Shown here in pieces: positions 2,440 to 38,937 of a DNA stretch of 64,000 bases. Position 1 is the first letter of the stretch. Each line of letters starts with the position of its first letter. The notes under the pieces were generated by a model. That model ran no database searches and had not been told where the DNA came from. It worked only from the letters and a program-made list of their open reading frames with translations. Where the stretch lies: NCBI GenBank assembly GCA_039679445.1, contig JBDKUY010000017.1, positions 4,065 through 68,064 on the forward strand, in the 5' to 3' direction. The translations under genes and the position numbers were made by a program. Origin of the DNA: Methanofastidiosum sp. (GTDB lineage: Archaea > Methanobacteriota_B > Thermococci > Methanofastidiosales > Methanofastidiosaceae).

Positions 2440-2491
2440 TTTATCTCCTCTTTTTTATACGCTAAACTATATAAAAAGATGTCTATTTAAT

Positions 2492-11769: not shown

Positions 11770-11774
11770 TTAAA

Positions 11775-12230: not shown

Positions 12231-12243
12231 ATAATCACCATAG

Positions 12244-12328
12244 CGCCGGGGATGGGATTTGAACCCATGCACTCCAGAGGAGAACGGGCTTTCCAGGCCC
12301 GCGCCGTACCAAGCTCAGCAACCCCGGC
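12244..12328 (-). tRNA. tRNA-Ser (anticodon GGA), class II
   Basis: Reverse complement GCCGGGGTTGCTGAGCTTGGTACGGCGCGGGCCTGGAAAGCCCGTTCTCCTCTGGAGTGCATGGGTTCAAATCCCATCCCCGGCG. Anticodon stem CGGGC/GCCCG with loop CTGGAAA (U33, GGA), and a long variable arm. Confidence 0.85.
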
Positions 12329-14119: not shown

Positions 14120-14134
14120 TAAGTCACCTCCAAT

Positions 14135-14952: not shown

Positions 14953-14964
14953 AATTTCTCACCT

Positions 14965-17357: not shown

Positions 17358-17367
17358 CTTAAAACAC

Positions 17368-17829: not shown

Positions 17830-17837
17830 AATCTCAC

Positions 17838-18767: not shown

Positions 18768-18768
18768 C

Positions 18769-19341: not shown

Positions 19342-19345
19342 TGCT

Positions 19346-19807
19346 TCACCTCTTCCTCTTTTCCGATACAAGGCCGTGTTCTTTTATGTAATTACTCATG
19401 TAAGAAACACTTCTAAAAGCTCCACCTTTAGCCATCCTATAAAGTTTTCTGTATGAACCTTTGTCAATATTTTTGGATTCTCTTAATTCAATTAAAGTCC
19501 TTCTTAATGGCCTTATTGTATTAATCCATCTTCTCTTCTTAGGATATCTCGCAGTGGCTTTTCCTTTTCGGGAACCAAATCCACTCATTCTTCCTTTCTT
19601 TCTTTTGACGTGTCTCTCTCTTGCTCTATGTCTTGATATGCCTGCTTCCTGTTTCTTCTTAATCTTGCCACTATCGATTAATTTTCTGACATCTTCTCTG
19701 GTAATTGCCATAGAAATCTCAGGTGCACTGTTGCTGTCAATCCAAACTCTGCCTTCGCCGCATTTTAGTAACTGTGATGCAAGTCTCTTCTGAACTTTTA
19801 GATCCAT
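19346..19807 (-). CDS. rpl19e: 50S ribosomal protein L19e
   Basis: MDLKVQKRLASQLLKCGEGRVWID. The start was set at the internal Met. Confidence 0.9.
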   Translation of the reverse strand: MDLKVQKRLASQLLKCGEGRVWIDSNSAPEISMAITREDVRKLIDSGKIKKKQEAGISRHRARERHVKRKKGRMSGFGSRKGKATARYPKKRRWINTIRPLRRTLIELRESKNIDKGSYRKLYRMAKGGAFRSVSYMSNYIKEHGLVSEKRKR

Positions 19808-19811
19808 ATGA

Positions 19812-20339
19812 TCATTCCTCCACCAATATACCGGCATCTTCTGCCTTTCTCACTATATCAGACCTTATGTCGCTATCAATACTAAGTGGAACTATTAGTT
19901 TCTGGATATGATCTTTAATAGGTTCAATAGCATCAAACTCTTCAACTGACGTAACTTTTACATGAGTCAAGGATGGATTTGCTATTTTAAGATTAGATTT
20001 AGCAGCTTTTTTGACTATCTCAATCTTCTTTTTGTTTCCAACAGTTGCATTGATTCTAATTATGACATTTTCTAGGCCATCAATTTGTCCTGGATTTGTA
20101 ATCATGACCTCTTCCAAGCCAGATGCGTGTCTGCCTCTAACTTCTTTTGGCCCCCTGTACCCAACTGAAACTAGAGGTTGCTTTCCACTTCTTTTCATTC
20201 TCATCTTGTTATCTTTACCTCTAGGTTTTCTCCATGTAGGATTGTTCTTAAAGGATTTCTTCTTCCATGTTTCAGTTCTTAGAAATTTTGGCCTCTTGCT
20301 ATTAAGCTTTTTTCTAACTCTTAATAATCGTAAACTCAT
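19812..20339 (-). CDS. rpl32e: 50S ribosomal protein L32e (with about 50-aa C-terminal extension)
   Basis: TWRKPRGKDNKMRMKRSGKQPLVSVGYRGP core. Residues 125-175 are beyond the usual domain. Confidence 0.85.
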   Translation of the reverse strand: MSLRLLRVRKKLNSKRPKFLRTETWKKKSFKNNPTWRKPRGKDNKMRMKRSGKQPLVSVGYRGPKEVRGRHASGLEEVMITNPGQIDGLENVIIRINATVGNKKKIEIVKKAAKSNLKIANPSLTHVKVTSVEEFDAIEPIKDHIQKLIVPLSIDSDIRSDIVRKAEDAGILVEE

Positions 20340-20349
20340 TTTATCTCAC

Positions 20350-20907
20350 CTATATTGGGACTCCGTCCCTTTCAAATAAATAAATACCATCCTGAAATAC
20401 TCTCGGGTCTCTCTTTCTTACCCTTGTAGCAAGCTCTATATTGGCTGCAGTTTGACCAACTTCTTCTAAGTTAATACCATTTACAGTAACAAATTCACCG
20501 GAAACTTTTACCGCCACATTACCAAAAATATTTGCTTTTCTAGGGCTCTTTTCGCCAAGGAAATTAGAAATCACGAGCTGTTTGCCATCTAATTTGACGT
20601 TCATTGGAAAATGTGCGTATATAATTTTCATCTTATACTCAAATCCTTCTGAAACTCCTTTTATCATATTCCTTAGATGCGAACTGATGGTACCTATCAT
20701 AGCCTTTTCTTTCTTGTATGCGTGAAGCATTGCTACTCTAATACGTTTATCGTCTTCTATCTTCTCCATTTTAAGGTTCTTTAAGTGAAAATCTCTCTCC
20801 AATTTACCTTTTGGCCCTTCTACACTAACTCTTGCCCCATCTATTGTAACTTTTACAGATTCTGGGATATCAATAAACCATTCGACATGTTGTACCATAA
20901 ACATCAC
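20350..20907 (-). CDS. rpl6: 50S ribosomal protein L6 (uL6)
   Basis: IPESVKVTIDGARVSVEGPKGKLERDF, two L6 repeats. Confidence 0.9.
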   Translation of the reverse strand: MMFMVQHVEWFIDIPESVKVTIDGARVSVEGPKGKLERDFHLKNLKMEKIEDDKRIRVAMLHAYKKEKAMIGTISSHLRNMIKGVSEGFEYKMKIIYAHFPMNVKLDGKQLVISNFLGEKSPRKANIFGNVAVKVSGEFVTVNGINLEEVGQTAANIELATRVRKRDPRVFQDGIYLFERDGVPI

Positions 20908-21294
20908 CTAGTAAACATAAGCTAATAGAATGCCTCCAATGTTTTGCTCTTTGGCCTTCTTGTGGGACATTACTCCATTTGGAGTTGACATTATTAATAT
21001 TCCAAACTCCTTTGCTGGGAGATATCTCATTTCCCAATTCTCAAGTTCATGATTCTTTGTGGGGGTTCTTGGTTTTATAACTCCGCACTTATTTATAGCC
21101 CCCATTAATTCAACTTTAAATAGGCCGTTCTTACCATCGTCTATAAATTCAAATGCTCCTATATATCCCCATTTCTGCATAATTCTCAGGATATTGCCCA
21201 TAAGTTTTGATGCTGGGATAACGCAATCGGGCTTTCTAGCATTTTCATAATTATAAATATTTGAAAGTGCGTCGGCCAAAGGATCTATTTTCAT
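20908..21294 (-). CDS. rps8: 30S ribosomal protein S8 (uS8)
   Basis: [18 protein letters not shown] and C-terminal GGILLAYVY. Confidence 0.9.
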
Positions 21295-21304
21295 CTTTAA
21301 TCAC

Positions 21305-21448
21305 CTAATGATATTTTTTGAAGCCAATCTTTCTGGCGACTTCTCTAAAGCAGCGCCTGCAAATCATAAGATTATATCTTCGAATGACTGCACGGTGGGT
21401 ACCACAGCGTCTGCATGTTCTTGAGCCTACTCCAAACTTTTTATTCAT
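21305..21448 (-). CDS. rps14: 30S ribosomal protein S14, zinc type Z (uS14)
   Basis: Not in the ORF track because it is under 60 aa. Hand translation of the minus strand gives [47 protein letters not shown] (47 aa, CxxC...CxxC zinc ribbon). Its ATG overlaps the uL5 stop in an ATGA arrangement. Confidence 0.8.
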
Positions 21449-21990
21449 ATAATGTTCACCCCAAACTCCTGTTTAGCAAACAGTATCCCTTCTTCTTTGG
21501 TCAACTGATGCTTTATGGGTACGTGGCTCTTTTTAATTCTTCTCTCTTTTACTCTAAATCCTCTCTTTTGAAGATTAACACAGACATCCATCCCGAAGAT
21601 TCCTACTTCAGGGTCATATTGAACATCAGGAAGATCTATGTGTTCTTTTATGCCAAAAGAGAAATTACCGCGATTATCAAAACTTCTTTCCTTTAGATTA
21701 AATTCCACTGCTTCAAGTGTTCTCATAAGGAATTTACTAGCCTTTTCCCTTCTAAGAGTAACAGAAACTGCAATAGGTTCACTTTTCCTAATTGCAAATT
21801 CTTTATTGGTTTGTCTGGCATTATTCCTAATAGGTGCCTGACCAGTAAGAAATTCAAGAAGTGCCCTAGCTTTTTCTAGTTTTTCTCCTGATTCCCCTAC
21901 CCCCATATTGACAGTTACTTTTGATAGGTATGGTTTTCTCATAGGATTTTCCCAATTTTTTAGTATCTCTTCCATGTTTGCCAGCCTCAC
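21445..21990 (-). CDS. rpl5: 50S ribosomal protein L5 (uL5)
   Basis: [21 protein letters not shown] and the conserved uL5 core. Confidence 0.9.
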
Positions 21991-22700
21991 TCAAGTTTAA
22001 TTATGGGAGAATCTTTTCCAACGACAAGCACATAATCTTTTAATGTCTGAAACTTGTCATTTCCTGATTCTAATAATACTGCGTCTTTATATATCCCAAA
22101 TGGAGTTATCTTTGAAATCTTACCTATCCTTGAAACGTTTTTACCTTTAATGACTAGTCCGATATAACCTTCTTTAAATTCAAGTGAATCTATAATCTTC
22201 ATATCTGGAACTTTCATTACTAATGTTGAAGATGTTTTGTAAACTTCTTCAGATAATAAGTTCGTTCCATCATGGAGATTCAATTGAACTTTTTTTCCTG
22301 TAAGCATTGTCTTATTAATCAATTTAAAGAGCTTGGTATTCTTTTCAGACTCATCTATCTTAAGAAGATTTACGGACCCTTTTTTGTCGAATAATACTCG
22401 GAAATATTCCTTTGTTTTAGGAATTTCTATAACGTCCATAATACCTACCGGAAAGCTGGAATCTTTTATTGGCCTTCCGTTTACAAGAACATCACCATTA
22501 TGTAGGATAAAGTTTACCTCTTTCCTATTTGTGGCATGCCCAAGATAATCCCTAAGTAAGATTGTAATCGGAATTGACACCTCTTTAGAATGAGGGCCTG
22601 GAATAGGTTTTACAGTCCATTCCTTGACTTTTCTCTCGATTCTCCAATTTTTTGGAGCAAATAATCTTTTTAATGATCTTCTCTGTCCTTTTCTCCCCAC
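21987..22700 (-). CDS. rps4e: 30S ribosomal protein S4e
   Basis: MGRKGQRRSLKRLFAPKNWRIERKVKEWTVKPIPGPHS. Confidence 0.9.
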   Translation of the reverse strand: MGRKGQRRSLKRLFAPKNWRIERKVKEWTVKPIPGPHSKEVSIPITILLRDYLGHATNRKEVNFILHNGDVLVNGRPIKDSSFPVGIMDVIEIPKTKEYFRVLFDKKGSVNLLKIDESEKNTKLFKLINKTMLTGKKVQLNLHDGTNLLSEEVYKTSSTLVMKVPDMKIIDSLEFKEGYIGLVIKGKNVSRIGKISKITPFGIYKDAVLLESGNDKFQTLKDYVLVVGKDSPIIKLE

Positions 22701-22709
22701 GTTACCACC

Positions 22710-23078
22710 TTACTCTCCCTTTCTCCCAATAGCTTTATCTCTCATCTCATCCTTTCTGTCAACATCAATAATCTCTAAATTTGAAGGGTGTATAGGATAC
22801 TCAATTTTTGTTCCGTCGGCTTTCTCTACAACTGCACCATCTACATATACCTTAATTGCTTTGAGGTCTACCTTTGTTATTTCACCTTCATGATCTTTGA
22901 AATCCCCTCTCATTACTCTGACCTTATCACCTTTTCTTAATGGCAGTGATCTTGCTTCTACCTTATTTCTAAGGCTTGTAGCTAGGTGAGAAGACATTAA
23001 ACTGTGTTTTTTATGAAGTGGCGCATTAAAGTGCCTTTTCCTCTGCTTTGATGGTTTTCCTGAGTATTTTTTAATCAT
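22710..23078 (-). CDS. rpl24: 50S ribosomal protein L24 (uL24)
   Basis: KOW motif KGDKVRVMRGDFKDHEGEITKVD. Confidence 0.9.
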   Translation of the reverse strand: MIKKYSGKPSKQRKRHFNAPLHKKHSLMSSHLATSLRNKVEARSLPLRKGDKVRVMRGDFKDHEGEITKVDLKAIKVYVDGAVVEKADGTKIEYPIHPSNLEIIDVDRKDEMRDKAIGRKGE

Positions 23079-23090
23079 TCTTATCCCCCT

Positions 23091-23513
23091 CTATACTATA
23101 ATACTTGCAACGTTAGCAATTCTAACCCATTTTTCAACTGCTTCTTTTGCAACAGGGCCCCTTACTTCAGAGCCTTTAGGAACGCCGTCGTCACCAGTAA
23201 TAACGGCTGCATTATCCTCAAATTTAATTCTTGTACCGTCTATTCTCCTGTATTCTTTTCTCTGCCTTATTATAACGGCAGGCAATACCTTCTTTTTGAC
23301 ATCTGGTCTGCCCTTTTTAACGGCTACCATTACCATGTCACCAACACCGGCTTTTGGATATCTCCTAGAGGTACCTTTGTAATTGATTACCGCAATAATT
23401 TCAAGTTCTTTTGCACCGGTATTGTCAGCACAAACTAATCTTGTTCCAGTTGTGTGAAATCTGCCAGGCCTTACAGTTGACCTTCCACGAGTTGCTCCCG
23501 CACCTTTCGCCAT
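23091..23513 (-). CDS. rpl14: 50S ribosomal protein L14 (uL14)
   Basis: [18 protein letters not shown]...[11 protein letters not shown]. Confidence 0.95.
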
Positions 23514-23827
23514 CAGATCACCTCAACGACAACGAATTTTTTTGTCTTGCTTAATGGTCTGCATTCCATTATTTTCACATTGTCGCCTGTTTTAGCGTTA
23601 ATACAGTCGGGAATATGTGCTGAAATTCTTGTACTTCTCTTTTCAAATCTCTCATATTTGTCAAGTTTTGTCATAAACTCTTTTTTAACGACGACTGTTT
23701 TGTTCATTTTGTCGCTTACAATCTTCCCTTCCATTAATTTGCCTCTGACAGGTAAAGTTCCGTGAAATGGACATTTTTCATTATTACAACTTTTTTTAGG
23801 TTCTTTTACATCGATGCCGATCATCAC
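23513..23827 (-). CDS. rps17: 30S ribosomal protein S17 (uS17)
   Basis: [30 protein letters not shown]...KFVVVEV, an OB fold. Confidence 0.9.
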
Positions 23828-23828
23828 A

Positions 23829-24062
23829 TCACACCCTCTTGATTCTTTCTTCTTCCTTCCCTATGAGTAAATTACCATCAATTTTTTTATCGTTAATCAT
23901 CAGGATTATACTATTTTTTATTAAGATTTTTACCCCATTTTCTGTCCTTAGTTTTATCGTATTTTTTGTATCCTCGATGACCAATCCTTTAATGCCAACT
24001 TCATATCTATTTGAGCTTTGGATTACCTCGACTTGTTTCCCCAAGAGTATTATGTGATTCAT
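23829..24062 (-). CDS. rnp1: RNase P protein component 1 (Rpp29/Pop4)
   Basis: 77 aa. [33 protein letters not shown]...[15 protein letters not shown] matches the Rpp29 Sm-like barrel. Conserved position between aSUI1 and uS17. Confidence 0.7.
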
Positions 24063-24367
24063 GAAACTACAATCATATCCTTACTAAATCCAAGGTCAAT
24101 TAGTATTTTTTTAACCTTGTCCTTGTGGGCTCCTTGAAGTTCAATCTTTCCGTCTTTTGAAGTTCCACCGCATGCACATTTTGTCTTTAGATTTGTGCAC
24201 AGATCCTTGATATCAATATTTGATGAATCGATTCCTTCAACGACCGTCATAAGTTTTCCAAATCTTCTTCTTTCGGTGAAAATGCGTATTTGTTGTTCTT
24301 CCCTGGCGATTTCTTCGCAGACGCAAAGATCTTTGGGAAGACCACAAACTGCACAAATCTCACTCAT
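24059..24367 (-). CDS. sui1: translation initiation factor aSUI1 (eIF1 homolog)
   Basis: [15 protein letters not shown] zinc knuckle and a SUI1 domain ([19 protein letters not shown]). Confidence 0.9.
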
Positions 24368-24569
24368 TTTGCTTCTCCTTTTCAGCCTTTATTGTTTTTA
24401 ATCTTGCTATAGTCCTTCTAAGCTCCCTTATCCTTCCAGGATTTTCTGGTGCGCTGCCTGTAGCAAGTAAAGACCTTTCCTTTGATAATTCACTTTTAAG
24501 TTCATCTATGTTATTTTCAATTTCTTCAACTGAAAGGTCTCTTATATCGTCTACTCTATATATTGCCAT
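24360..24569 (-). CDS. rpl29: 50S ribosomal protein L29 (uL29)
   Basis: 69 aa helical. [22 protein letters not shown]. Confidence 0.85.
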
Positions 24570-24582
24570 TATTATACACCTA

Positions 24583-25176
24583 TTACTTAAACTTTATTTC
24601 ATCTGGCAGTGATACGTCTTGAGGCATTATCTTGATTACAACTCCGATTATACCGAGTTTCTTCTTTGCGGGTGAATATCCAACTCTCACATGTTCAATG
24701 GCTGGATCCCCACATTTTTTTAGATATCCTTCGGCAAATCTCATTGAACGAGCTCTTTCTCCGCTAAGTTTTCCTGAAATCTTAATTTCAGCGCCTTTTG
24801 CCCCAGACCTCATTATTCTTCTAAGATAATTGTAAGCTGCCCTTCTATAATGCTCTCCTCGCTCAATAGCGCTAGCAAGCTGAAATGCCATTACATCTGC
24901 ATTAAGATCTGGATTCTCAATTTGCTGCACTTCAATCTGAGGATTCTCGAGATTAAAAGGAGGTCTTTCTAGTTGGTCTGTCAAATCTTTAATGGCCCTT
25001 CCTCTTTTTCCTATAACAATTCCGGGCTTCTGCACGAAAACTGTAACTCTAGTTCCAAGAGGATTTCTCTTTATGTCCATCCCTGCATAACCAGCTCTCT
25101 TTAGTGAATCTCCAAGGAATTCATCAATCGTTAAATTGGAAACGCTTTCTTCTATAAATTTTCTCTCAATGGCCAT
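24583..25176 (-). CDS. rps3: 30S ribosomal protein S3 (uS3)
   Basis: KH domain and C-terminal domain. [18 protein letters not shown]. Confidence 0.95.
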
Positions 25177-25628
25177 TATCTCTCCTCCACGATTATCTCG
25201 ACATTTGTAAGCTCCTTGTTATATGGCGAAGCTCTTCCAAAAGCTCTTGGCATAAATCCCGGGATTACTCTGCCTCTGTAAGCAGACGCATGAATTATTC
25301 TTAATTTTGTTGTGTTCAATCCTTTATATTCTGCATTTGATTCGGCTTCCTTAAGAAGTTTTAAGAGATTTGTTGATGCTTTTACTGGATATCTCCCGGC
25401 AAACCATTTTGAAAGTCCTTTCTTGTGGCCGACTTTTTTGTAATACCTCTTGAATGGTATAGGGGTTTCTAGTTTAATTGTGCTTTCTAGTAATTCCTTT
25501 GCCCTTTCGATCTTCATGCCTTTAATCGTATTGCATATCTCCCTACTATGTTTTGGAGATATATTCATATTTTTTCCATAAACTTTTGCAGTTTTTGTCT
25601 CATCTATATCAGTTCTTGAATAGGGCAT
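25176..25628 (-). CDS. rpl22: 50S ribosomal protein L22 (uL22)
   Basis: [35 protein letters not shown]. Confidence 0.9.
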
Positions 25629-25632
25629 CAGA

Positions 25633-26040
25633 TCACCTCAATGGCACATACTGGGAAGACTTTGTAGAGCCCACTCCAGGGGCACCGTGTGAAACTCTTC
25701 TTCTTGAAGGTGCGAATTCTCCTAAATAATGTCCCACCATCTCAGGAGTAATCTCTACAGGAACAAATTCCTTACCATTATAAATTCCTATAGTAACTCC
25801 GAGCATCTCTGGGAGTATTACCATATCACGGCAGTGTGTTTTCACAGCATAGTTGTTTCCAGCTTCCATTTCTTTTCTCGATTCTCGTATATTCTTAAGT
25901 AATTTTTTCTGTCTTACGGGAAGTCCTCTCTTAAGAGATCTCCTCTGTCTTGATGGCAAGAGTTCAATCAACTTGTCCATAGACATTTTTCCCATTTGAT
26001 CAACAGTAAAACCCATGAAACTAAATTCTTTTTTAGCCAA
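25633..26040 (-). CDS. rps19: 30S ribosomal protein S19 (uS19)
   Basis: [23 protein letters not shown]-terminal signature. Confidence 0.95.
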
Positions 26041-26042
26041 GT

Positions 26043-26768
26043 TTAACGCCTCCTACCAGTTCTTTTTGCTGCTATGTGTCCAACTTTTCTACCTGGTGGT
26101 GCATTTCTTGAAGAAGTTGTACCTTTACCCGGGTGCTTGTGATTACCTCCACCGAACGGGTGATCGTTGTGGTTCATTGCAATTCCTCTAACTTTTGGAT
26201 ATAGTGTGGCTTTACTTCTAAGCTTGTGGAATTTCTTTCCTGCTTTTACTAAAGGCTTTTCTTTTCTTCCTCCGCCAGCTACTACTCCGATTGTACATCT
26301 GCATTCTGAATTCAAAGTCTTCATTACACCTGAAGGAAGCTGTATTACTGTTTTCATACTATCATGAGCTATTAATGTAGCATAAGTCCCTGACGACCTG
26401 ACAAATTTGCCCCCGTCCCCAGGTCTTGATTCTATATTATAAATATAAGTTCCCTCTGGGATATTCTTCAAAGGAAGTGTATTCCCAATTTCAACTTCGG
26501 CCATTGTTCCTGTTGCAATACTACTGCCTACTCGGATTCCTTCTGGTACAAGAAATAATTCTTGCTCTTTATTATCAAAAAGAATCGTTGCTACTGGTGA
26601 AGTTCTAGCTGGATCATTGAATAGTTCTCTAACAACACCGCGTGTTACTCCGTCTCTCTCTACGTTATCATAGCTTCTGTGTCTAACTTTTCCATTGTAT
26701 CTATGTGAAGGGGCCTTGTATGTATGTGTTCCTCTTCCTCTTCTCTGTGAAATAATTCTTTTACCCAA
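26043..26768 (-). CDS. rpl2: 50S ribosomal protein L2 (uL2)
   Basis: [24 protein letters not shown]...[18 protein letters not shown]. Confidence 0.95.
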
Positions 26769-26778
26769 TCATATCACC

Positions 26779-27042
26779 TTAAAATACACCTATTTTTGTT
26801 GCGACTTCGTCAGCAGGATACTCTTCTTTTAGTTTAACGTATGCCTTTTTCTTCCCAGTAGACAAAACAGTCGTGCTTACTTTTTCTACTTCGACTTCGT
26901 AAAGTTCTTCTACGGCATTGTATATATCCTGTTTGTTGCTGCCCATGGTAACAATAAAGGTCAATATATTGTCCCTTTCCATGGTAGCTACAGTCTTTTC
27001 TGTAATAAGTGGATGGACAATCACGTCGTGTGGATTTTTCAC
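26779..27042 (-). CDS. rpl23: 50S ribosomal protein L23 (uL23)
   Basis: VIVHPLITEKTVATMERDNILTFIV. Confidence 0.9.
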   Translation of the reverse strand: MKNPHDVIVHPLITEKTVATMERDNILTFIVTMGSNKQDIYNAVEELYEVEVEKVSTTVLSTGKKKAYVKLKEEYPADEVATKIGVF

Positions 27043-27809
27043 TTGAACACCTCACTTTTAGAAAGATACTTTATTGCATCTTCGGTCCATATTGTGAGTC
27101 TTCCTGCATGTGTACCTGGGGCAAGATGTTCAGCACTTAGCTTATCGACCATTACAATATCTACACCAGGGTGATTTCTTGCAGCCTTCATTATGCCTGC
27201 GTCCTTTCCAATAACTATTAAAGGGCCTATTTTGTTTTTATATCTCCTTCCTCTCATCTTTCCTCTTCCAGCCCTTATTGTTCTAGATTTTGATCTGATT
27301 ATGTCATCCCAAACCCCAAGGCTCTTGAATATCTCTCTTGTATCTTTTGTCTTTTTTACTGTTTGAATCTTATTCTCAACAATTATCGGGAATTCAACAT
27401 TATCTAAAAATCTGTGACCTCTTGACATCACCATTTCCTTGTTAGCGGTTATTGATATAGCTGATTTTATTGCTACAGTTCTTTCTTTATTGTTTATCTT
27501 CTCACTGATAACTTTCCAAGGTTTTGGTGGATGAGCTACAAATCCCCCTACAACATGAGGTGCAAATGCAGCCCTTCTTGGGCCAGATTTCATTCTAGGT
27601 ACTCTTGATATTCCAAGATTTTTTCTTCTTGGATGTGCAGATGTCATTCTTCCGGCAATTGGACTTACTCCCCATGGTTGAATTCTATGAGTTATAGAAG
27701 CCAATACTGCCCTCTTGATTAAATCAGGTCTGTACTCATAAGAAAACACTGAGGGAAGGTCTATTGCTTTCAACTTCTCTCCAGTTATTGAATATACATT
27801 AGATTTCAT
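27039..27809 (-). CDS. rpl4: 50S ribosomal protein L4 (uL4)
   Basis: 256 aa. FAPHVVGGFVAHPPKPWK and RAGRGKMRGRRYK. Its start overlaps the uL3 stop region. Confidence 0.9.
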   Translation of the reverse strand: MKSNVYSITGEKLKAIDLPSVFSYEYRPDLIKRAVLASITHRIQPWGVSPIAGRMTSAHPRRKNLGISRVPRMKSGPRRAAFAPHVVGGFVAHPPKPWKVISEKINNKERTVAIKSAISITANKEMVMSRGHRFLDNVEFPIIVENKIQTVKKTKDTREIFKSLGVWDDIIRSKSRTIRAGRGKMRGRRYKNKIGPLIVIGKDAGIMKAARNHPGVDIVMVDKLSAEHLAPGTHAGRLTIWTEDAIKYLSKSEVFK

Positions 27810-27812
27810 TGT

Positions 27813-28820
27813 TTATGCCTCCCCTGCAGAAGCTTTGTAGAGGTAGGTAATATCTGGTACCCCTCCAGTTCTTCTTACTGGTACCCTTACAGATTTTCTA
27901 AGTCTTAATATTCTCTTTGTGGATCCTCCTACGCTACCTTTAAGCATAGCATAGTCGGATGTTAATAATCCATAATTCTTAAATCCTTCTTTTGGAGTAA
28001 CGTTGAGATCTTTTGGATTTGAGAGTCTAAATATTCTTTTGTTAAGTTCTGTTCTCGTGTGGAATCCCATCTGTCCAGCAAATGGCACTGTCCACATAAC
28101 TTTTGGTGGATGCCATGGACCGATTGAACCTACGTGCCTTCTTGCATCATTAGTTTTTCTAGTCTGTACTTTTACTCCCCATCTCCTTATTACGCCTTGG
28201 AATCCCTTTCCTTTTGTAACTGAAATAACATCGACGAATTCTCCTTCGTCTAGAACATCTTTTACCTTTAGTTCTTTTCCAAAAACACCCTTTAGGTATT
28301 CCAACTTGGCGTTAACATCTGCTCCGCCAATCCCGCTTTCCATGACCTCTGGTTTCTTTTTCAGATTAATGAGCTTTGGTTGAGTGCAAACAATAGCTCT
28401 TAAATCATCTACTTTTCCACCTTCTATAAGAGATTGGATTTTATCAAGGTCTTTTACAGGATTTTTTGAAACAGTTTTTGATCGTGAAAGTTCTTTCGGG
28501 CCTTCTGCCCAAGACTCTGTGACAGTTTTCAGTCCGTATGGAGTCTTCTTGTATGCCCTAACACCACAAACATAAATTGGTGGAGTTTCTACCAAAGTTA
28601 CAGGTACCACCATTTCTTTTCCTTTTGTAAGTGTATACTTTCTATCATCTATCCTTAAAATGTGGGACATCCCTACCTTATAGCCGGGAAAGTCTAAGAT
28701 CTTAACATCATCCACTTCTGGCCAACTATTCAAAGTTGGCACTATCTTTGAAGCCCTCTTTCTGGGGCTGTATCCCAAGGAACCTCTACGGGGTCTTTTA
28801 TTTCGTCCACTACCGCCCAT
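27813..28820 (-). CDS. rpl3: 50S ribosomal protein L3 (uL3)
   Basis: MGGSGRNKRPRRGSLGYSPRKRA and FQGVIRRWGVKVQTRKTNDARRHVGSIGPWHP. It is the first gene of the cluster. Confidence 0.95.
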   Translation of the reverse strand: MGGSGRNKRPRRGSLGYSPRKRASKIVPTLNSWPEVDDVKILDFPGYKVGMSHILRIDDRKYTLTKGKEMVVPVTLVETPPIYVCGVRAYKKTPYGLKTVTESWAEGPKELSRSKTVSKNPVKDLDKIQSLIEGGKVDDLRAIVCTQPKLINLKKKPEVMESGIGGADVNAKLEYLKGVFGKELKVKDVLDEGEFVDVISVTKGKGFQGVIRRWGVKVQTRKTNDARRHVGSIGPWHPPKVMWTVPFAGQMGFHTRTELNKRIFRLSNPKDLNVTPKEGFKNYGLLTSDYAMLKGSVGGSTKRILRLRKSVRVPVRRTGGVPDITYLYKASAGEA

Positions 28821-29325: not shown

Positions 29326-30897
29326 TCAAAAGAAAATAAAAGAATAGCGATTTTGTGAATCTCTGATTACATGCCCCTTTTTGTGCATCCAATCCAGTAA
29401 ATCCTGCACGTCATATTCATCTTTGAATAAATCAGTTGACTTTACTTCACGGAATATTTCAATTACAGTTAGATTTGGAGTATTAATCAGGGTAGCTTGA
29501 ACAACGTTATACCTCTCATTTGATTCATAATCTTTAATTGAATCTATTTCTTTTTTAATCGAGGGTTCACCTAACAACTGTTCGAAATTATCAAGTGTAG
29601 TTCTCCTTGAATCTTTAAGGAATTTATTTGTTATTTCCGTTTTATCGTCCGCCCTTGCAAATGACTGTGCCAATCTTTTGATATTGTAACTTGTTCTATT
29701 CAGCATGGAACGAACAATCAATTCTCTTGTTTTGTCTTGTTTGAATTTGTCGGCTAAAAGGACATCATAGTCTTTAGATAATAATTCTATTATGTGCCGA
29801 TATTCTTTATCATAATTTTTTCCTTCAGTAGGATTATTATGGTGCGCATGGACAATCTGAATCCATAAATTCTCATCAATCATTTTAAGTAAAGGTCTGA
29901 GGTACATATCATCTTCTGTCAACAACTGGTCGATGTCTGACAAAGTAATTTCTGTCTGGGTAAAATTTCTGAAAGTTTCAAGGATCATCTGCCTTCTTGT
30001 TCCCTCGTTAATTTTTATTGAAGAGAAAAGGGAATACTCTCCCCTGAAATTAGTTCGTTCAACTAGCGATTGATGCAGTTTTCCATAATTATCAGAATAT
30101 ATCTTAGAGAGGATATTCTGCCCAACTTTAGGCCTTTCTGCAAGTTTGTACTGAATAGTATTTGAATCGAAATTTATGCCATTGATTGCTTTTTTTGGTG
30201 GGTCCATACCCCGATATTCAGGCGGGACCATTAGTTGGATGATCTTCAGTAACTCGAGGGCGAGTTTTGAATTCCATGAAAGTGATGATAGAGATATACC
30301 CCCTACTTTCCCATCGTAAGGTGCACTTAAAATGGGTGCCTGAAATGACCTTGATATATCCTTGTCTAAAGGTAAGTTTTCTGCAAATAGGTTTTCAATT
30401 ATCCTTCTTTCATATGAAACATCCAAATAAATAGAATCTGATGGGAGCTCTTCCCAATCCTCAATTAAAATAACAAATTCACTTTTATTCAGCTTCTCAT
30501 TATAGATATATGATTTCTTTGATTTTATAATACTGATAAGGCTATAATTTTCTGGAATATCCTTGCCAGAAGGTATCAATCCTATAGTAACTGCAATAGG
30601 GGTATTATAAAGAGCAGATAGCCCTATTGGCTTAGAGTTAGTTTGAGATTCAATGGCAACGTTCCATGAAGTATCCATGGACATTGGAACAACATAAAGA
30701 GATATTTCTTCTAAAGATTTTCCATTTTCAGACCTACTAAATTCCTTATACCACTCTTCTACCTTACTTATCCTTTTCTTTTCATACTCTAAGAATTCAA
30801 CATTAATATATTGTCTATCCCATGGGAACTCAGAATAGGTAGGATATTTCTTCCACAGATAATAATCATTAAGTCTTAAAGATTCATGATTTGCCAT
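29326..30897 (-). CDS. large hypothetical protein (about 520 aa), no recognisable domain
   Basis: The long ORF runs to 31032 but overlaps the divergent LplB-like ORF, so the start was placed at the internal Met (MANHESLRL). No P-loop or other diagnostic motif was seen. Confidence 0.35.
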   Translation of the reverse strand: MANHESLRLNDYYLWKKYPTYSEFPWDRQYINVEFLEYEKKRISKVEEWYKEFSRSENGKSLEEISLYVVPMSMDTSWNVAIESQTNSKPIGLSALYNTPIAVTIGLIPSGKDIPENYSLISIIKSKKSYIYNEKLNKSEFVILIEDWEELPSDSIYLDVSYERRIIENLFAENLPLDKDISRSFQAPILSAPYDGKVGGISLSSLSWNSKLALELLKIIQLMVPPEYRGMDPPKKAINGINFDSNTIQYKLAERPKVGQNILSKIYSDNYGKLHQSLVERTNFRGEYSLFSSIKINEGTRRQMILETFRNFTQTEITLSDIDQLLTEDDMYLRPLLKMIDENLWIQIVHAHHNNPTEGKNYDKEYRHIIELLSKDYDVLLADKFKQDKTRELIVRSMLNRTSYNIKRLAQSFARADDKTEITNKFLKDSRRTTLDNFEQLLGEPSIKKEIDSIKDYESNERYNVVQATLINTPNLTVIEIFREVKSTDLFKDEYDVQDLLDWMHKKGHVIRDSQNRYSFIFF

Positions 30898-31014
30898 TTT
30901 ATCCTTTAATTGAATATTGAGAGACTTATATATAAAAGTAACACAATTTCTTTTTATTGGTTGACTACAATATTTATTTAAGTTAATAATTCCATTTAGA
31001 ATTGGTAGAGAATA

Positions 31015-31287
31015 ATGAATATTTTTGAACATAAACGAGAAGGCGGAAAATTAATTGGCGTTTCTTTTAACTATAAAAACGACATTTTTTCAGATGTCAG
31101 AATATATGGGGACTTCTTTGTCTTCCCAGAAGAAGAAATAGATAATTTAGAAAAATCGATTAATCAAAAGAGCTTGCCTGAATTATTACAACTAGTTGAT
31201 GATTTTTTTTCTTCAGGTATTAAGGTATATGGGATAACTGCTCGAGACCTAAAGGAAGTATTTGAGAGGGCAATAAATGAAAAGTAA
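31015..31287 (+). CDS. stand-alone lipoate-protein ligase C-terminal domain protein (LplB-like)
   Basis: 90 aa. GKLIGVSFNYKNDIFSDVRIYGDFFVFPEEEIDNLEKSI matches the GDFF-containing core of the LplA/LplJ C-terminal accessory domain. Assignment is from memory of the family logo. Confidence 0.5.
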   Translation: MNIFEHKREGGKLIGVSFNYKNDIFSDVRIYGDFFVFPEEEIDNLEKSINQKSLPELLQLVDDFFSSGIKVYGITARDLKEVFERAINEK

Positions 31288-32095
31288 GAACATATGCTAT
31301 CTTTCTAAAGACTCATTCCCAAGTATTTCAATTACAGGAGAGGCATGCTACTTTTCATGCATGCATTGTAATCGTAAATATTTGAAGTTCATGATGCATG
31401 TTACTCAAGAAGATCTATATCAGAAAGCTATTGAACTAAATAATAAAGGGACAAAAGGTATCCTTGTTAGCGGAGGACTTGACGAAAGTGGAAAGCTTCC
31501 AATTGACTATTCAATCCTTAAGAAAATAAAAAAGGATACTGACCTTATAATTAATCTACATTCTGGATTTCTAACAAGAGATGACGCAAAAAAAATAAAG
31601 AAAAGCGGAATTGATGCGGTATCCATTGATTTTGTTGGAAGTAACGATACAATAGAAAGAATACTTAAGATACCTTTCAAGGTTTCTGATTATGAAAACA
31701 CTCTAAGATTCTTAATAGAAGAAGGTGTTAATGTTATCCCTCACATATGCGTTGGCCTTGACTATGGAAAGGTCTTGGGTGAATATAATGCAGTTGAGAT
31801 ATTGAAAGAATATCCAATAAAAAGTCTAACTTTATTAGTACTCATTAAGAATGAACTTGAGAAAATAAGCAGCTTTGATTATGACATTCAATCAATAAAA
31901 GATTTCTTTTTTTATACAAGAAATTCTTTCCCCGATGCCAAATTATCCTTGGGATGTATGCGCCCGAGAATCAAGGACCTGGATGAAACTGTCCTTCTCT
32001 TTGACAACATTGTAAATCCAACAAAAAACATGATTAAACTTATAAGAAATGAGTCCAATATAATTGTAAAAGAAATATGTTGTTCTGTATGTTAG
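31277..32095 (+). CDS. radical SAM enzyme, BioB/LipA/HydE-like subfamily
   Basis: CxxxCxxC at residues 24-31 (GEACYFSCMHCN), a GGE-like VSGGLDESG, and EEGVNVIPHICVGLDYGKVLGE resembling the BioB/LipA aGl..s.iMvGlGEt segment. It has a C-terminal CCSVC. Its start overlaps the LplB-like stop by 11 nt. Confidence 0.65.
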   Translation: MKSKNICYLSKDSFPSISITGEACYFSCMHCNRKYLKFMMHVTQEDLYQKAIELNNKGTKGILVSGGLDESGKLPIDYSILKKIKKDTDLIINLHSGFLTRDDAKKIKKSGIDAVSIDFVGSNDTIERILKIPFKVSDYENTLRFLIEEGVNVIPHICVGLDYGKVLGEYNAVEILKEYPIKSLTLLVLIKNELEKISSFDYDIQSIKDFFFYTRNSFPDAKLSLGCMRPRIKDLDETVLLFDNIVNPTKNMIKLIRNESNIIVKEICCSVC

Positions 32096-32102: not shown

Positions 32103-32453
32103 ATGGAAGAATTACCAACGATAAAAAGTAGTACAGAAATAAAAAAAATTCTAAGATGTGCCTTTGATCTAACAGACCTTGAAGTGAGTATAACACTGAT
32201 GCTTCCACCTGAAGGAATGAGGGTTAAGGAAATTCAAAATATTCTAAAAAAAGATAGAACAACCATCCAAAAATCTTTGAAGATTTTAGTAGATAAAGAG
32301 CTAATTTTTAGAGAATCTAAATGCTGTGTTCAAGGAAAAAGAGGGCGGTACTTTGTGTATAAATCTTTAGAACGTGAAAAGATTAGAAAGAAAGTTCTGG
32401 CAAGTATTGATAAATGGTATGGAGATCTTCAGGAATCCGTTAAATCACTTTAA
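32103..32453 (+). CDS. winged-helix transcriptional regulator
   Basis: 116 aa. HTH GMRVKEIQNILKKDRTTIQKSLKILVDKELI followed by a wing. Confidence 0.5.
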   Translation: MEELPTIKSSTEIKKILRCAFDLTDLEVSITLMLPPEGMRVKEIQNILKKDRTTIQKSLKILVDKELIFRESKCCVQGKRGRYFVYKSLEREKIRKKVLASIDKWYGDLQESVKSL

Positions 32454-32516: not shown

Positions 32517-32849
32517 GTGAATTATATGGGTAAGAATACAATTGAGCTAACAGATTCAAATTTTGATCAGGAAGTCTTAAAGAGTAGCAAACCTGTCGTT
32601 GTTGACTTTTGGGCAACATGGTGTGGTCCATGTCAAATGATTGCTCCCGTTATTGAAGAAGTTGCAGGAGAACATCCAGAGTGGAAGATTGGTAAATTGG
32701 ATGTTGACAAAAGTATGTCAGTAGCTCAGAGATATGGAATTAGGAGCATACCAACAATTGCCATATTCAGGGACGGGAAAGTATTCGACATGATAATCGG
32801 TTTCGTGCCTAAAGAAGAGCTCATAAAAAGAATAGAAAGAAATATTTAA
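32517..32849 (+). CDS. trxA: thioredoxin
   Basis: WCGPC active site and canonical Trx fold length (110 aa). Confidence 0.9.
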   Translation: MNYMGKNTIELTDSNFDQEVLKSSKPVVVDFWATWCGPCQMIAPVIEEVAGEHPEWKIGKLDVDKSMSVAQRYGIRSIPTIAIFRDGKVFDMIIGFVPKEELIKRIERNI

Positions 32850-32896: not shown

Positions 32897-34339
32897 TTAG
32901 AGTACTTTCCACTTTACAGTTGTAAACACTGGACCTCTAATGTCTATCTTGCCTTTACCCCTTAGATACTGGTGAATGTATGTCGGAAGAGATATATTGA
33001 TATCAGAAATACTTCTGACTATAGGGATTCTTTCTTCGTACTCTCCTTGCTCTTTAGTCACCTCTATTTTTGAAACAACTTTCCTAAAGAAAGCTTCAAG
33101 ATATGAAATTTTGGTATCGACACCATTCTTTATTATATTTAAAGAGTTTTCATCTTTAGAGTCTGGAAGTATTCCGACCGTGGCCTTTTCTAAGACATAA
33201 ATCTGATTGAATCCTGCAGGCCCAATTAATTTAGTATTTTCCTCAGGCTCAACAATCATTACCTCTATTTTTCTTCCTAAGAAATCCCCCTTGTAGGAAA
33301 TGAATTCACATGGCGATTGTGCATCTTTGTTTTGTTGTGCAGTTTCAATTAAAGCCTTCAATAACTTTTCCCCTTCTGATGTTTTAATATCCTGAACAAA
33401 CTCGATAGATTTTGCAATATCTTGATCGGAAAAGTCAACTTTGTAGAACTGTGGATATATAAGTTCACGAATATCATTTACTCCGCTTCGGATCATAGAT
33501 ATTCTTTCCGCACCCTGTCCAATATTCAAAACATCATAGGGGATTTTGTATTTCTTCAAAACATCCTTGGAGTATAATCCAAAGTCAGCGATCTCTATCC
33601 AGTCACCTAATTTGATAAATGCTTCATGTTCAGTTCCAGCTTCGTAATAACTCGCACTTCTCTTCTTGACCTTGAATTTAACTTCGTCAAAGCCGAGTTT
33701 TTCTGTAAAATTTGTGACTATTTCTTTTCCTAATTCAGGAGAAATTTCTTTATCCATGACGACACATGATGCAGAGAAATGACTTCTAAGGTGAGTCTGA
33801 TCTTCTCGCTGCTCACGCCTAAAACATCTATCGATTGAAAATAACTTTAATGGCAGTTCACTTCTACCGGCAAGAGCTTGTAAAGTAATAAACCATCCGG
33901 AAGTCATATGAGATCTTAAAGTGAGATTTGTAGGAACTGGAATTAACTCTTTAAATTCCTTGAAAAGGTCTAATACTTTTTCAGCCGCTTCAAATTCAAT
34001 CCCTAGTCCTTTAGATATCGCCTCAACAAAATCGTCACCTTCTATTGTTCCCCGCTTATAATCTTGCAGAGTTCTTTCAAGGTTCCTACTCCTTCTTTCA
34101 TCGAGTTCTACAAACTGGGATATCTTGTCCTTGACTTCTTTTGAAAGACCTACATTTGGTCTTGGAAGCCCTGCAAGATAGTATACTCGGTCCAAGATAG
34201 CAGGGGTCTCAGAACCCCACTGCTTATACATATCATCGTCAGTTATGAAAAGAGGATTGAACACCTCATCGAAATCAAGATCAAGGTAAATATTCTTGAG
34301 AATAGATATTGTATCTTCTAAAATATGCGGCTTACCCAT
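32897..34339 (-). CDS. sepS: O-phosphoseryl-tRNA(Cys) synthetase (SepRS)
   Basis: Class II core TLTLRSHMTSGWFITL...LPLKLFSIDRCFRREQREDQTHL...FSASCVV and C-terminal DIRGPVFTTVKWKV are near-identical in pattern to methanogen SepRS. N-terminal DRVYYLAGLPRPNVGLS also matches. Confidence 0.85.
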   Translation of the reverse strand: MGKPHILEDTISILKNIYLDLDFDEVFNPLFITDDDMYKQWGSETPAILDRVYYLAGLPRPNVGLSKEVKDKISQFVELDERRSRNLERTLQDYKRGTIEGDDFVEAISKGLGIEFEAAEKVLDLFKEFKELIPVPTNLTLRSHMTSGWFITLQALAGRSELPLKLFSIDRCFRREQREDQTHLRSHFSASCVVMDKEISPELGKEIVTNFTEKLGFDEVKFKVKKRSASYYEAGTEHEAFIKLGDWIEIADFGLYSKDVLKKYKIPYDVLNIGQGAERISMIRSGVNDIRELIYPQFYKVDFSDQDIAKSIEFVQDIKTSEGEKLLKALIETAQQNKDAQSPCEFISYKGDFLGRKIEVMIVEPEENTKLIGPAGFNQIYVLEKATVGILPDSKDENSLNIIKNGVDTKISYLEAFFRKVVSKIEVTKEQGEYEERIPIVRSISDINISLPTYIHQYLRGKGKIDIRGPVFTTVKWKVL

Positions 34340-34751
34340 AAACTATCCCCTCTCCAGGATCAACTTCTCGCTTTGGCGAAACAGAAGGCATTGAAACAGG
34401 AGATGGAACATTTATATCACTAGAAACGCCTACCGCCTCAACAAAGCATCTGTAGAGTATTGCATTGTGGATAAAAAGAAATCTACCAGTGTCTAGTCTC
34501 TTCTTTTCTTTCCACTCGTTTAGTATTTCTTCTTTTTCAGGTCCATCGTAAATAAAAACGCCCTCAATTTTAATGGAACATACATTAGGGGAGTAATTGC
34601 AACAGAAAACAAATTCTATAAAAATATTGTTATTGTTACTACTATAAGCATCAGTTAAGGTCAAGTTGCTTGAAATGCCAACAGATGGCGACCCTTCGTC
34701 GACTCTGATAAATCTTTTGGCTTCAATGCCAGTTAAAATTACGCCCCCCAT
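34332..34751 (-). CDS. hypothetical protein (139 aa), translationally coupled upstream of sepS
   Basis: Its stop overlaps the sepS start by 8 nt. Asn/Ser-rich with an FVFCCNYSPNVC segment. No family recognised. Confidence 0.3.
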   Translation of the reverse strand: MGGVILTGIEAKRFIRVDEGSPSVGISSNLTLTDAYSSNNNNIFIEFVFCCNYSPNVCSIKIEGVFIYDGPEKEEILNEWKEKKRLDTGRFLFIHNAILYRCFVEAVGVSSDINVPSPVSMPSVSPKREVDPGEGIVYG

Positions 34752-34800: not shown

Positions 34801-35736
34801 TCAATCTCTAGATAATAAGACAACTCTTGATTCCGGTGCAGAATCAATTGCCTTATAGCCTGATTTTTCTTCCAGTTCTTTAGAGAATTCTAATATATCA
34901 TCAAACATTGGCATGTTTTCTACTTCAAGCCTCTTCCTTGAATAGCCAACAAACATGTAAGCTTTAGCCTCGATAAAATCAGGATTTGCCTTTTCTATAA
35001 GTTTTGAGTATTCATCGATATCTGCCATGTTAAAATCCTTAACAAGAGTGAGCCTTAGGATCCTTCTTTTTGTTTTAATCTTTGGCAGAAGCTCTAAAGA
35101 CTCGTTTAGTTTTCCCCACCCGTTCTTAATCTGTGGGTTACAAACCCTTTCATAAGTTTCTTTTGTGGGCGCCGGCAATGTGATGTAAAGATTATCGGGA
35201 TAAGTATCCATTGAAGCAAGTACGTTGGGTGTTGTCCCGTTTGTCACGAGAAATGTTGAGAAATTTCTTTTTTTAAATCCATCAATTAATCCTGATAAAT
35301 CAGGATAAAGGGTAGGCTCACCGGCAAGAGAAATTGCAACGTTTGTTGGATCTTCTGCTTCTTTCAGTTTATTTATATCGACAGTTTCAAGAAATCCGTG
35401 GTAACCTGAGAGGAGCTCTCTTTGTGCCTCTATGCATCCTTCGATTATAGTCTCAGGGTCGTCATATTTAGAAGGGTTATCTTCGTTATATTCAACTGGG
35501 CGCCAACAGAATAAACACTTGTGTGTGCACCATGCGACAGAAGGAGTCATCTGTAGACACCTATGGCTTTCAATTCCGTAGAATCTTTGTTTATAGCAAA
35601 CTCTGCCTTCAGTCAAACTTTTTTTTGACCAGTGACAGATTTTTACTGCGCTATGTTCCCCAACAATCCTGTATTTCTGTCTCTTCAGTATACTCCAAAC
35701 TTTCTCCATCGCCATGACCCCCAAGGTCTTGAACAA
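34801..35736 (-). CDS. taw1: tRNA 4-demethylwyosine synthase Taw1 (TYW1, radical SAM)
   Basis: HSAVKICHW...CYKQRFYGIESHRCLQMTP...CTHKCLFCWRP are the TYW1 N-terminal cluster and CxxxCxxC motifs. About 310 aa, archaeal size. Start is uncertain between Met1, Met8 and Met10. Confidence 0.75.
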   Translation of the reverse strand: MFKTLGVMAMEKVWSILKRQKYRIVGEHSAVKICHWSKKSLTEGRVCYKQRFYGIESHRCLQMTPSVAWCTHKCLFCWRPVEYNEDNPSKYDDPETIIEGCIEAQRELLSGYHGFLETVDINKLKEAEDPTNVAISLAGEPTLYPDLSGLIDGFKKRNFSTFLVTNGTTPNVLASMDTYPDNLYITLPAPTKETYERVCNPQIKNGWGKLNESLELLPKIKTKRRILRLTLVKDFNMADIDEYSKLIEKANPDFIEAKAYMFVGYSRKRLEVENMPMFDDILEFSKELEEKSGYKAIDSAPESRVVLLSRD

Positions 35737-37799: not shown

Positions 37800-38321
37800 A
37801 TGGAACATAAAAGTATATTTACAGCTAGAGAGATATCTGAAATGGCTATTACCATAGCACTCTCCACAGTTCTCAGTTTCATCAAAGTTTTTCAATTACC
37901 CCAAGGTGGATCGATTACAGCAGGAAGCATGATCCCAATAATATTTTTAGCGCTCAGAAACAGGCCAAAAGTTGCACTTACGGGGGCTATCCTTTATGGT
38001 GTTGTTCAATTTATGATTGAGCCTTTCTTTGTTCATCCAGCACAATTCCTTTTGGATTACCCTCTTGCATTTGGAGTTCTTGGTATTGCCACATTCATAA
38101 AGAGATACCCATTCATTGGGGCAAGCGTTGGAGTCGCTTTAAGATTTGTTTGCCACTTCCTTTCAGGATTCATATTCTTTGGTATGTATGCACCTGAAGG
38201 TATCAATCCAGCTTACTACTCTGCAATCTATAATGGCTCTTATTTACTACCTGAGCTTTTCGTAACAGCGATATTTATTTATATACTGTCTAAAAAGAAG
38301 TTAATAGATGCCTTCAAATAA
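37800..38321 (+). CDS. thiT: thiamine transporter ThiT-like (ECF S-component-like) membrane protein
   Basis: 173 aa, 6 TM, with GGSITAGSMIPI and similar length and pattern to ThiT/YuaJ. Its position immediately upstream of thiamine pyrophosphokinase supports this. Confidence 0.55.
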   Translation: MEHKSIFTAREISEMAITIALSTVLSFIKVFQLPQGGSITAGSMIPIIFLALRNRPKVALTGAILYGVVQFMIEPFFVHPAQFLLDYPLAFGVLGIATFIKRYPFIGASVGVALRFVCHFLSGFIFFGMYAPEGINPAYYSAIYNGSYLLPELFVTAIFIYILSKKKLIDAFK

Positions 38322-38937
38322 GAAAACACTGATAATACTAAGTGAGTCTGAGCCCTGTCTTCTAGATGATAATTTTGATCTTGTATTAGCCGCAGATGGG
38401 GGGTATAGGACCGCTAAGAAAATGAATCTAGATATCGATGTTCTTCTTGGAGATTTTGATTCGATAACATCTGAAGAGCTTAAAGAAGCAGAATCAAACG
38501 GGATTAAGACTATATCATTCCCAACTGATAAAGACAAGACTGACGGAGAACTTGCAGTTGACTATGCTATTTCTGAAAGGTCAAAAGAGCTTGTAATACT
38601 TGGTAGCTTCAAGGAAGAGCTTGACCATGCATTAGGCAATCTATTTTTACTTTTCAAGATAGATAAAGTCGGGATTAAGTCAAGGCTCCTTACCCAAAAA
38701 TATGAGATTGAAATAATAACTAATGAGAAGGAATACCCTCTTAGGATAGGTCATGAAGTATCTCTTATACCAGTTTCTGAAATAGTTCAAGATCTTAATA
38801 TAGAAGGCTTCAAATATAATCTCAAAAATGTAAATGTTGGAATGGGCCAAACTCTAACATTAAGGAATGTAATAATTGACAATAAGGCAAAAGTATATTT
38901 TAAGAAAGGTAAAGTTTTATCTATCCTAAAAAGATAA
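38308..38937 (+). CDS. thiN: thiamine pyrophosphokinase
   Basis: LAADGGY, GDFDSI and PTDKDKTDGELA catalytic motifs, with a C-terminal thiamine-binding domain. Overlaps the thiT end by 14 nt. Confidence 0.8.
   Translation: MPSNKKTLIILSESEPCLLDDNFDLVLAADGGYRTAKKMNLDIDVLLGDFDSITSEELKEAESNGIKTISFPTDKDKTDGELAVDYAISERSKELVILGSFKEELDHALGNLFLLFKIDKVGIKSRLLTQKYEIEIITNEKEYPLRIGHEVSLIPVSEIVQDLNIEGFKYNLKNVNVGMGQTLTLRNVIIDNKAKVYFKKGKVLSILKR

Follow-up and report, generated by a model that had tools for sequence, protein, structure and literature searches.

In Thermoplasma acidophilum, LplB, which is the smaller of the two subunits of the lipoate-protein ligase LplAB, is reportedly required for the adenosine triphosphate (ATP)-dependent formation of acyl-adenylate (acyl-AMP) by LplA, a requirement said to have been established by Christensen and Cronan in 2009 and by Posner and colleagues in 2009 and 2013. 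A heterodimer of LplA and LplB has been described (PMC10332631), and the gene order lipS2-lplA-lplB-lipS1 "seems typical for Archaea" (Tanabe et al. 2023, PMC10332631). For Thermococcus, Neti et al. (2022, PMC9585515) state that LipS2 accepts only the octanoyl substrate, to which it adds the C8 sulfur first, that LipS1 accepts only the 8-mercaptooctanoyl substrate, to which it adds the C6 sulfur, and that each of the two proteins has an auxiliary [4Fe-4S] cluster. It is only in Thermococcus that this division of labour (C8, then C6) is established. Here we analyse two overlapping genes in a stretch of 64,000 nucleotides from Methanofastidiosum sp. (hereafter the window; assembly GCA_039679445.1, contig JBDKUY010000017.1, positions 4,065 to 68,064), and we find that they are very probably lplB and lipS1 of the archaeal LplAB-LipS1/LipS2 lipoate assembly pathway. 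Both the pathway, described between 2020 and 2023 (PMC9585515, PMC10332631), and the pair itself, catalogued for the genus, are already known, contrary to the novelty implied by an earlier reading of the DNA letters alone (the original prediction).

Family membership, cluster ligands, purifying selection and synteny directly back this assignment. We found that the 272-amino-acid open reading frame (ORF) matches the NCBIfam equivalog model of LipS1 (NF053742) over profile positions 2-268 of 268 and scores 246.2 bits (cutoff 230; E 4.4e-73); on the same model the orthologue of a sister species (locus L014) scores 245.2 and the LipS1 of a canonical cluster (locus L018) 256.8. The models of BioB, HmdB, CofH and the tungsten-cofactor maturase gave 14-25 bits (for bioB, TIGR00433, 15.3 bits against a cutoff of 225), and these identities were rejected because their scores are far under the cutoffs. 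The LipA (TIGR00510), LipS2 (NF053743), HydE and ThiH models returned no match at E <= 0.1, and the C-terminal GCPxCNRPYY motif of LipS2 is not in the protein. The models of the pyruvate formate-lyase (PFL) activase and of QueE, a robust grouping with which would have gone against the original prediction, are absent among its profile matches.

The cysteines in CxxxCxxC, the radical S-adenosylmethionine (SAM) motif, are C24, C28 and C31, and the BioB/LipA-type segment EEGVNVIPHICVGLDYGKVLGE (PHICVGLDYG...GE) and the terminal CCSVC (C268, C269, C272) are present as first described. The lack of a LipA-type N-terminal motif was also seen correctly, with no CX4CX5C upstream of the radical SAM motif and C7 as the sole upstream cysteine. 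When 20 diverse LipS1 homologues are aligned, C24/C28/C31, H156, C227 and C268/C269 are invariant, and they correspond to C27/C31/C34, H159, C230 and C276/C277 of the Thermococcus kodakarensis protein, TkLipS1 (an offset of three residues is stated), where replacing these residues abolishes or greatly diminishes activity (PMC9585515). An AlphaFold2 model built from the same alignment reached a predicted local distance difference test score (pLDDT) of 90.7, with residues 191-200 as its only low-confidence stretch. The best matches of this model in the PDB, searched with Foldseek, are BioB and HydE, LipA structures ranking 22 and beyond, while a sequence search gave no match in the PDB copy searched, in which there is no LipS1 structure.

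The 90-amino-acid ORF carries a GDFF core within DVRIYGDFFVFPEEEIDNLEKSI and matches the NCBIfam LplB model (NF053749) over profile positions 2-86 of 86 with 64.5 bits (cutoff 65, E 7.6e-18), and its orthologue at locus L014 scores 72.4, above the cutoff. It passes the Pfam model of the LplA C-terminal family (PF10437, Lip_prot_lig_C; 24.7 against a cutoff of 24), a membership without which the original prediction would have fallen, and its residues 13-79 align to residues 18-84 of T. acidophilum LplB (PDB 3R07, chain C; E 5.5e-9). Together with the LipS1 score, these matches support the suggestion of a LipS1/LipS2-like lipoyl module. Within the genus, the pairwise ratio of nonsynonymous to synonymous substitution rates (dN/dS) is 0.07-0.15 for lipS1 and 0.10-0.20 for lplB (8 loci), which indicates that both genes are kept by selection.

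We collected 87 LipS1 loci, 17 from the genus and 70 from other archaea, through a genome scan seeded with an 11-sequence alignment, in which lipS1 and lipS2 were told apart by the best-scoring hidden Markov model (HMM). The closest proteins are 71-97% identical and come from Methanofastidiosum or Methanofastidiosa assemblies; lplB precedes lipS1 in the genus loci fetched, and the overlap of the two genes, which agrees in length with the first description, has the same 11-nt geometry in all eight Methanofastidiosum loci compared. Such an overlap probably couples the translation of the two genes, and is most simply the remnant of an ancestral four-gene cluster. Table S5 of Tanabe et al. 2023 gives, for Methanofastidiosum assemblies, an 819-nt LipS1 gene and a 273-nt LplB gene overlapping by 11 nt, with an LplA of 229-247 amino acids on other contigs, and table S3 scores Lpl in 8/8, GcvH in 7/8 and LipS1 in 6/8 species of the genus (PMC10332631). 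Where the flank suffices, the neighbours are constant across the genus and comprise the ribosomal-protein cluster, the 523-amino-acid gene, the winged helix-turn-helix (wHTH) gene, thioredoxin, O-phosphoseryl-tRNA synthetase (SepRS) and TYW1.

Table 1. Position, strand and description of the gene pair, its immediate neighbours and the restriction-modification genes (positions are those of the window)
Feature	Position	Strand	Description
lplB	31015-31287	+	90 aa; very probable small (accessory) subunit of the bipartite lipoate-protein ligase LplAB
lipS1	31277-32095	+	272 aa; very probable radical SAM lipoyl synthase subunit LipS1, predicted BioB-like fold, two predicted [4Fe-4S] sites
lplB stop/lipS1 start overlap	31277-31287	+	11 nt, ATGAAAAGTAA
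wHTH regulator	32103-32453	+	TrmB Pfam domain, Lrs14/Sta1-like; starts 7 nt after the lipS1 stop
Thioredoxin	32517-32849	+	TIGR01068, 123.5 bits
Gene without family match	29326-31032	-	568 aa as longest ORF; divergent from lplB
hsdR	56507-59266	+	Type I restriction-modification system
hsdS	59263-60663	+	Type I restriction-modification system
hsdM	60660-62120	+	Type I restriction-modification system

Outside the genus, lipS2 lies within 10 kb of lipS1 in 52/70 loci and lplA in 33/70. The canonical order lipS2-lplA-lplB-lipS1 with overlapping genes, confirmed with the NCBIfam models, was found at L018 (Thermoplasmata) and at L063 (Odinarchaeia). Among the 27 lplB genes outside the genus, 22 stand beside lplA, four beside lipS2 and four beside lipS1, three of the last four being flanked by lplA as well. 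LplB therefore travels with the ligase and not with the radical SAM enzyme, and only locus L203 has lplB beside lipS1 without lplA. This locus (Ga0190304_1000248, 879-2864, minus strand) is an lplB-lipS1-lipS2 operon of overlapping genes with no lplA in the 10 kb fetched, and in structure it comes closest to the arrangement in Methanofastidiosum; the LipS1 of this locus is 38% identical to the window protein. The position that lipS2 holds at L203, directly after lplB-lipS1, is taken by the wHTH gene in Methanofastidiosum.

Two further observations were made among these loci. At L023, L028, L043 and L070 (Jordarchaeia; for example L070:6081-7124, minus strand), a divergent radical SAM gene stands beside lipS1 and lplA in place of a canonical lipS2; its product reaches 69 bits with the LipS2 model of NCBIfam (cutoff 270) and similar values with the 'variant_rSAM' and MSMEG_0568 models, has CLKCTGC at its C-terminus, and is a candidate for an alternative inserter of the C8 sulfur. 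Additionally, locus L047 (DATKTW010000073.1), labelled 'Candidatus Nanopelagicaceae bacterium', carries lipS2-lplA-lipS1 at coordinates identical to those of L032 (labelled Promethearchaeota) and L042 (uncultured archaeon), and in the tree its LipS1 lies nearest to theirs; a binning or labelling error is probable.

The wHTH regulator and the thioredoxin follow the pair on the same strand, as first noted. The wHTH protein scores 27.4 on the Pfam TrmB model and about 52 bits on each of the NCBIfam Lrs14 and Sta1 models, under their own cutoffs, and its gene may be co-transcribed with lplB-lipS1; the thioredoxin starts in relatives at the ATG at 32526, which gives 107 amino acids. Beside lipS1, the wHTH gene is found in Methanofastidiosum loci and in 0/70 loci elsewhere, and thioredoxin is adjacent within the genus only, occurring elsewhere in 5/70 loci at a distance of 6-8 kb. 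A functional tie of the two genes to lipS1 was rejected on these counts, and their adjacency is genus-level synteny, not evidence of common function. On the other side, the minus-strand gene has no Pfam or NCBIfam match at E <= 0.1 and was found in 12 of the 87 loci searched, all from Methanofastidiosum and always in the same position. Its overlap with the start of lplB was rejected as an artefact of longest-ORF calling, because relatives call the gene as 523-525 amino acids; its true start probably lies near 30897, which leaves about 117 nt of intergenic sequence between it and the divergent lplB.

No gene for LplA, LipB/LipM, LipS2, GcvH or a lipoyl-domain protein was found in the 64-kb window with a Pfam scan of the ORFs of at least 110 amino acids on both sides of the ribosomal-protein cluster at 10053-28820, and HMMs of our own making for LplA and LipS2 gave no match in all six frames. 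The earlier statement that the window holds no LplA, LipB, LipM, lipoylated E2 or GcvH gene thus stands. Among four ORFs that contain CxxxCxxC, Pfam assigns only LipS1 and TYW1 as radical SAM genes, and the window contains no other radical SAM gene of the BioB-like kind.

Several observations weigh against assigning the pair to the pathway as described. The window LplB is 0.5 bit short of its NCBIfam cutoff. The LipS1 of the genus differs from 69 other LipS1 at the near-invariant positions P191K, P202Y, G232I, P10S and L26F, position 191 being proline in 100% of the others and lysine in the genus, and an extra C-terminal cysteine turns CC into CCxxC. Neither lipS2 nor lplA lies within ±10 kb of the pair in the 14 genus loci whose flanks exceed 1 kb on each side, and in table S3 of Tanabe et al. 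2023 the count of Methanofastidiosum species with LipS2 is 0/8, while nearly all Thermococcales genomes carry both LipS1 and LipS2 (PMC10332631). Protein searches with the LipS2 of L018 and of Pyrococcus furiosus gave no Methanofastidiosum name among the best 120 of 732 and the best 120 of 4099 matches, respectively; the P. furiosus matches listed are filled by Thermococcales, the next best being Methanomethylicia and Bathyarchaeota at 46% identity, and the searches exclude only a LipS2 that is nearer to Thermococcales than these. A metagenome scan for GCPxCNRP[YF][YF] returned at least 120 loci, with no Methanofastidiosum LipS2 among the matches listed, and the three adenine-thymine (AT)-rich LipS2 loci inspected (L094, L173, L204) have neighbours that look bacterial. 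Since TkLipS1 does not act on the plain octanoyl substrate (PMC9585515) and LipS2 was not found, the described pathway would be incomplete in the genus. That LipS2 is truly absent is unproven, the negatives covering the window, the ±10 kb flanks, the best matches listed and the published table. We tentatively raise the possibility that the genus has no canonical LipS2 and assembles the lipoyl group independently of it, with a diverged LipS1 that inserts both sulfurs or completes a C8-thiolated precursor, supplied by a non-homologous enzyme or through the ligation of free 8-mercaptooctanoate by LplAB. If a selected, diverged LipS1 does work without LipS2, this would imply a single-protein BioB-type synthase, an unknown C8-thiolating enzyme, or the salvage of a thiolated precursor.

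As a full account of the locus, the true loss of LipS2, in which LipS1 makes both insertions or finishes a precursor that owes its C8 thiol to another source (a radical SAM enzyme without homology to LipS2, or LplAB ligating scavenged or endogenous 8-mercaptooctanoate), appears unlikely to us. It would fit the published counts, with no LipS2 against 6/8 for LipS1 and 8/8 for Lpl, set beside Thermococcales that almost always have both; the lack of a nearby lipS2 in a genus whose counterparts elsewhere mostly have one; the wHTH gene standing where L203 has lipS2; and the clade-specific replacements together with the change to CCxxC in a protein that purifying selection marks as still in use. The Jordarchaeia, where LipS1 is paired with a radical SAM protein of so low a score on the LipS2 model, offer a precedent. 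Nevertheless, the negatives rest on loci and listings (the best 120 of either protein search, at least 120 loci of the metagenome scan) and not on whole genomes, and the published HMM screen has false negatives, given that Jordarchaeum madagascariense is scored 0 for LipS2 despite a LipS2-like gene beside lipS1. The LipS1 of the genus reaches only about 60% of the typical score in that screen, so an equally diverged LipS2 could miss its threshold, and the nearest LipS1 relatives, L018 and L087 in a rough neighbour-joining tree and L203, all have LipS2.

We also weighed whether LplB, in place of its part in the ligase or in addition to it, serves as a dedicated partner of the radical SAM enzyme that presents the acyl-lysine or docks the carrier protein, which is close to the borrowed substrate presenter that the original prediction had offered as an alternative. 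The overlap with lipS1 and the location of lplA elsewhere in the genome would suit such a role, but the prevailing company of lplB outside the genus is lplA, with a single gene beside lipS1 alone, and the protein aligns well to the T. acidophilum ligase subunit with nothing extra. In T. kodakarensis lplA and lplB are not clustered (PMC10332631), hence adjacency of lplB and lipS1 is not a conserved requirement, and the arrangement is most simply what remains of lipS2-lplA-lplB-lipS1; we therefore regard a partner role as very improbable and do not retain the presenter idea. Less probable still, in our view, is that the 272-amino-acid protein is a BioB-clan enzyme for another substrate, active in thiolation or cofactor maturation, whose match to LipS1 reflects common ancestry only. 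The score is only 16 bits above the LipS1 cutoff, identity to LipS1 outside the genus is 31-39%, and the stem branch is long with near-invariant residues altered; yet the bona fide, cluster-embedded LipS1 of L018 scores similarly, all LipS1-specific auxiliary ligands are kept, including the C-terminal CC, the gene is coupled to that of a lipoate-ligase subunit, and the BioB, HmdB, CofH and tungsten-cofactor-maturase models all stay below 26 bits.

We thus return to the assignment of the pair as lplB and lipS1 of the LplAB-LipS1/LipS2 pathway, from which we infer what the enzymes do, which protein they act on, that the two genes are translationally coupled, and the supply of the C8 thiol. LplB with a separately encoded LplA would form an ATP-dependent ligase that activates free octanoate or lipoate as the acyl-AMP and attaches the acyl group to the lipoyl-lysine of its target, most likely GcvH. 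LipS2 would then add the C8 sulfur first, and LipS1 would insert the C6 sulfur into the 8-mercaptooctanoyl-lysyl intermediate to give the lipoyl group. By homology with the described proteins, those of the window should carry out the LplB and LipS1 steps on GcvH. The gene pair probably represents the right-hand half of an ancestral lipS2-lplA-lplB-lipS1 cluster that in the genus was split from lplA, and from lipS2 if it exists. The names lplB and lipS1 can thus be given to two genes that public records carry as 'hypothetical' or 'radical SAM protein', an indication that protein lipoylation, most likely of GcvH, is maintained in a lineage of methyl-reducing methanogens.

Other genes of the window were also noted. 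The vitamin-salvage pair at 37800-38937 on the plus strand, in which a thiamine transporter gene (Thia_YuaJ) overlaps a thiamine pyrophosphokinase gene, is consistent with a cofactor-scavenging lifestyle, and because of such a lifestyle the scavenging of lipoate or octanoate by LplAB is plausible. Downstream of thioredoxin lies the SepRS gene (32897-34339), whose start is overlapped by 8 nt by a 139-amino-acid ORF at 34332-34751 on the minus strand, which has no family match, is kept in 11 genus loci, and may encode a SepRS-associated factor of the tRNA-dependent cysteine pathway. Two wyosine-pathway genes, TYW1 (407 bits on TIGR03972) and a Trm5/TYW2-type methyltransferase, are found on the minus strand at 34801-35736 and 46612-47601, and a HepT-like toxin gene precedes a complete type I restriction-modification system at 56044-62120 on the plus strand. 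Finally, a 670-amino-acid protein that combines a CAP domain with three CARDB repeats (7335-9347, plus strand) is encoded in the most AT-rich part of the window, where the guanine-cytosine (GC) content dips to 0.28 between 8001 and 10000 against about 0.35.

Compared with described systems, the window LipS1 has in common with LipS1 of T. kodakarensis (TK2109, with LipS2 TK2248 as partner) the CxxxCxxC near the N-terminus, the lack of a LipA-type N-terminal cluster motif, and equivalent auxiliary ligands, namely the His, the Cys and the C-terminal Cys-Cys. It differs in lacking the two non-essential cysteines C54 and C65, in its terminal CCSVC with the extra cysteine and in the clade-specific changes at near-invariant positions, and while T. 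kodakarensis has its LipS2 partner, none was identified in the Methanofastidiosum genus, a methanogen lineage which, unlike T. kodakarensis, was sampled in biogas-fermenter and soda-lake-sediment metagenomes. BioB (PDB 1R30, 8VDW) is the best structural match of the LipS1 model, with a template modelling score (TM-score) of about 0.65-0.67, and like LipS1 it is a radical SAM enzyme that inserts a single sulfur and has an auxiliary cluster; identity in the structural alignment is 13-18%, and the auxiliary ligand set differs. LipA, a more distant fold match, yields the same end product, lipoyl-lysine, and both LipA and LipS1 are radical SAM enzymes with an auxiliary [4Fe-4S] cluster, that of LipA being the stated sulfur source (PMC9585515); LipA inserts both sulfurs, whereas LipS1 inserts one, and the N-terminal CX4CX5C of LipA is lacking in the window protein. 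For the ligase, T. acidophilum LplA/LplB (3R07) likewise has a stand-alone LplB of about 90 amino acids, with which 67 residues align, including the GDFF(M/V)FPE core. Unlike there, lplB in the window does not stand beside lplA but overlaps lipS1, and the Methanofastidiosum partner LplA is known from the published table only (Tanabe et al. 2023, table S5). With the canonical cluster of L018 and L063, the window has in common the lplB-lipS1 order, the overlapping frames and the protein families, but it holds the right-hand half only, with the divergent gene without family match upstream in place of lipS2-lplA and the wHTH and thioredoxin genes downstream instead.

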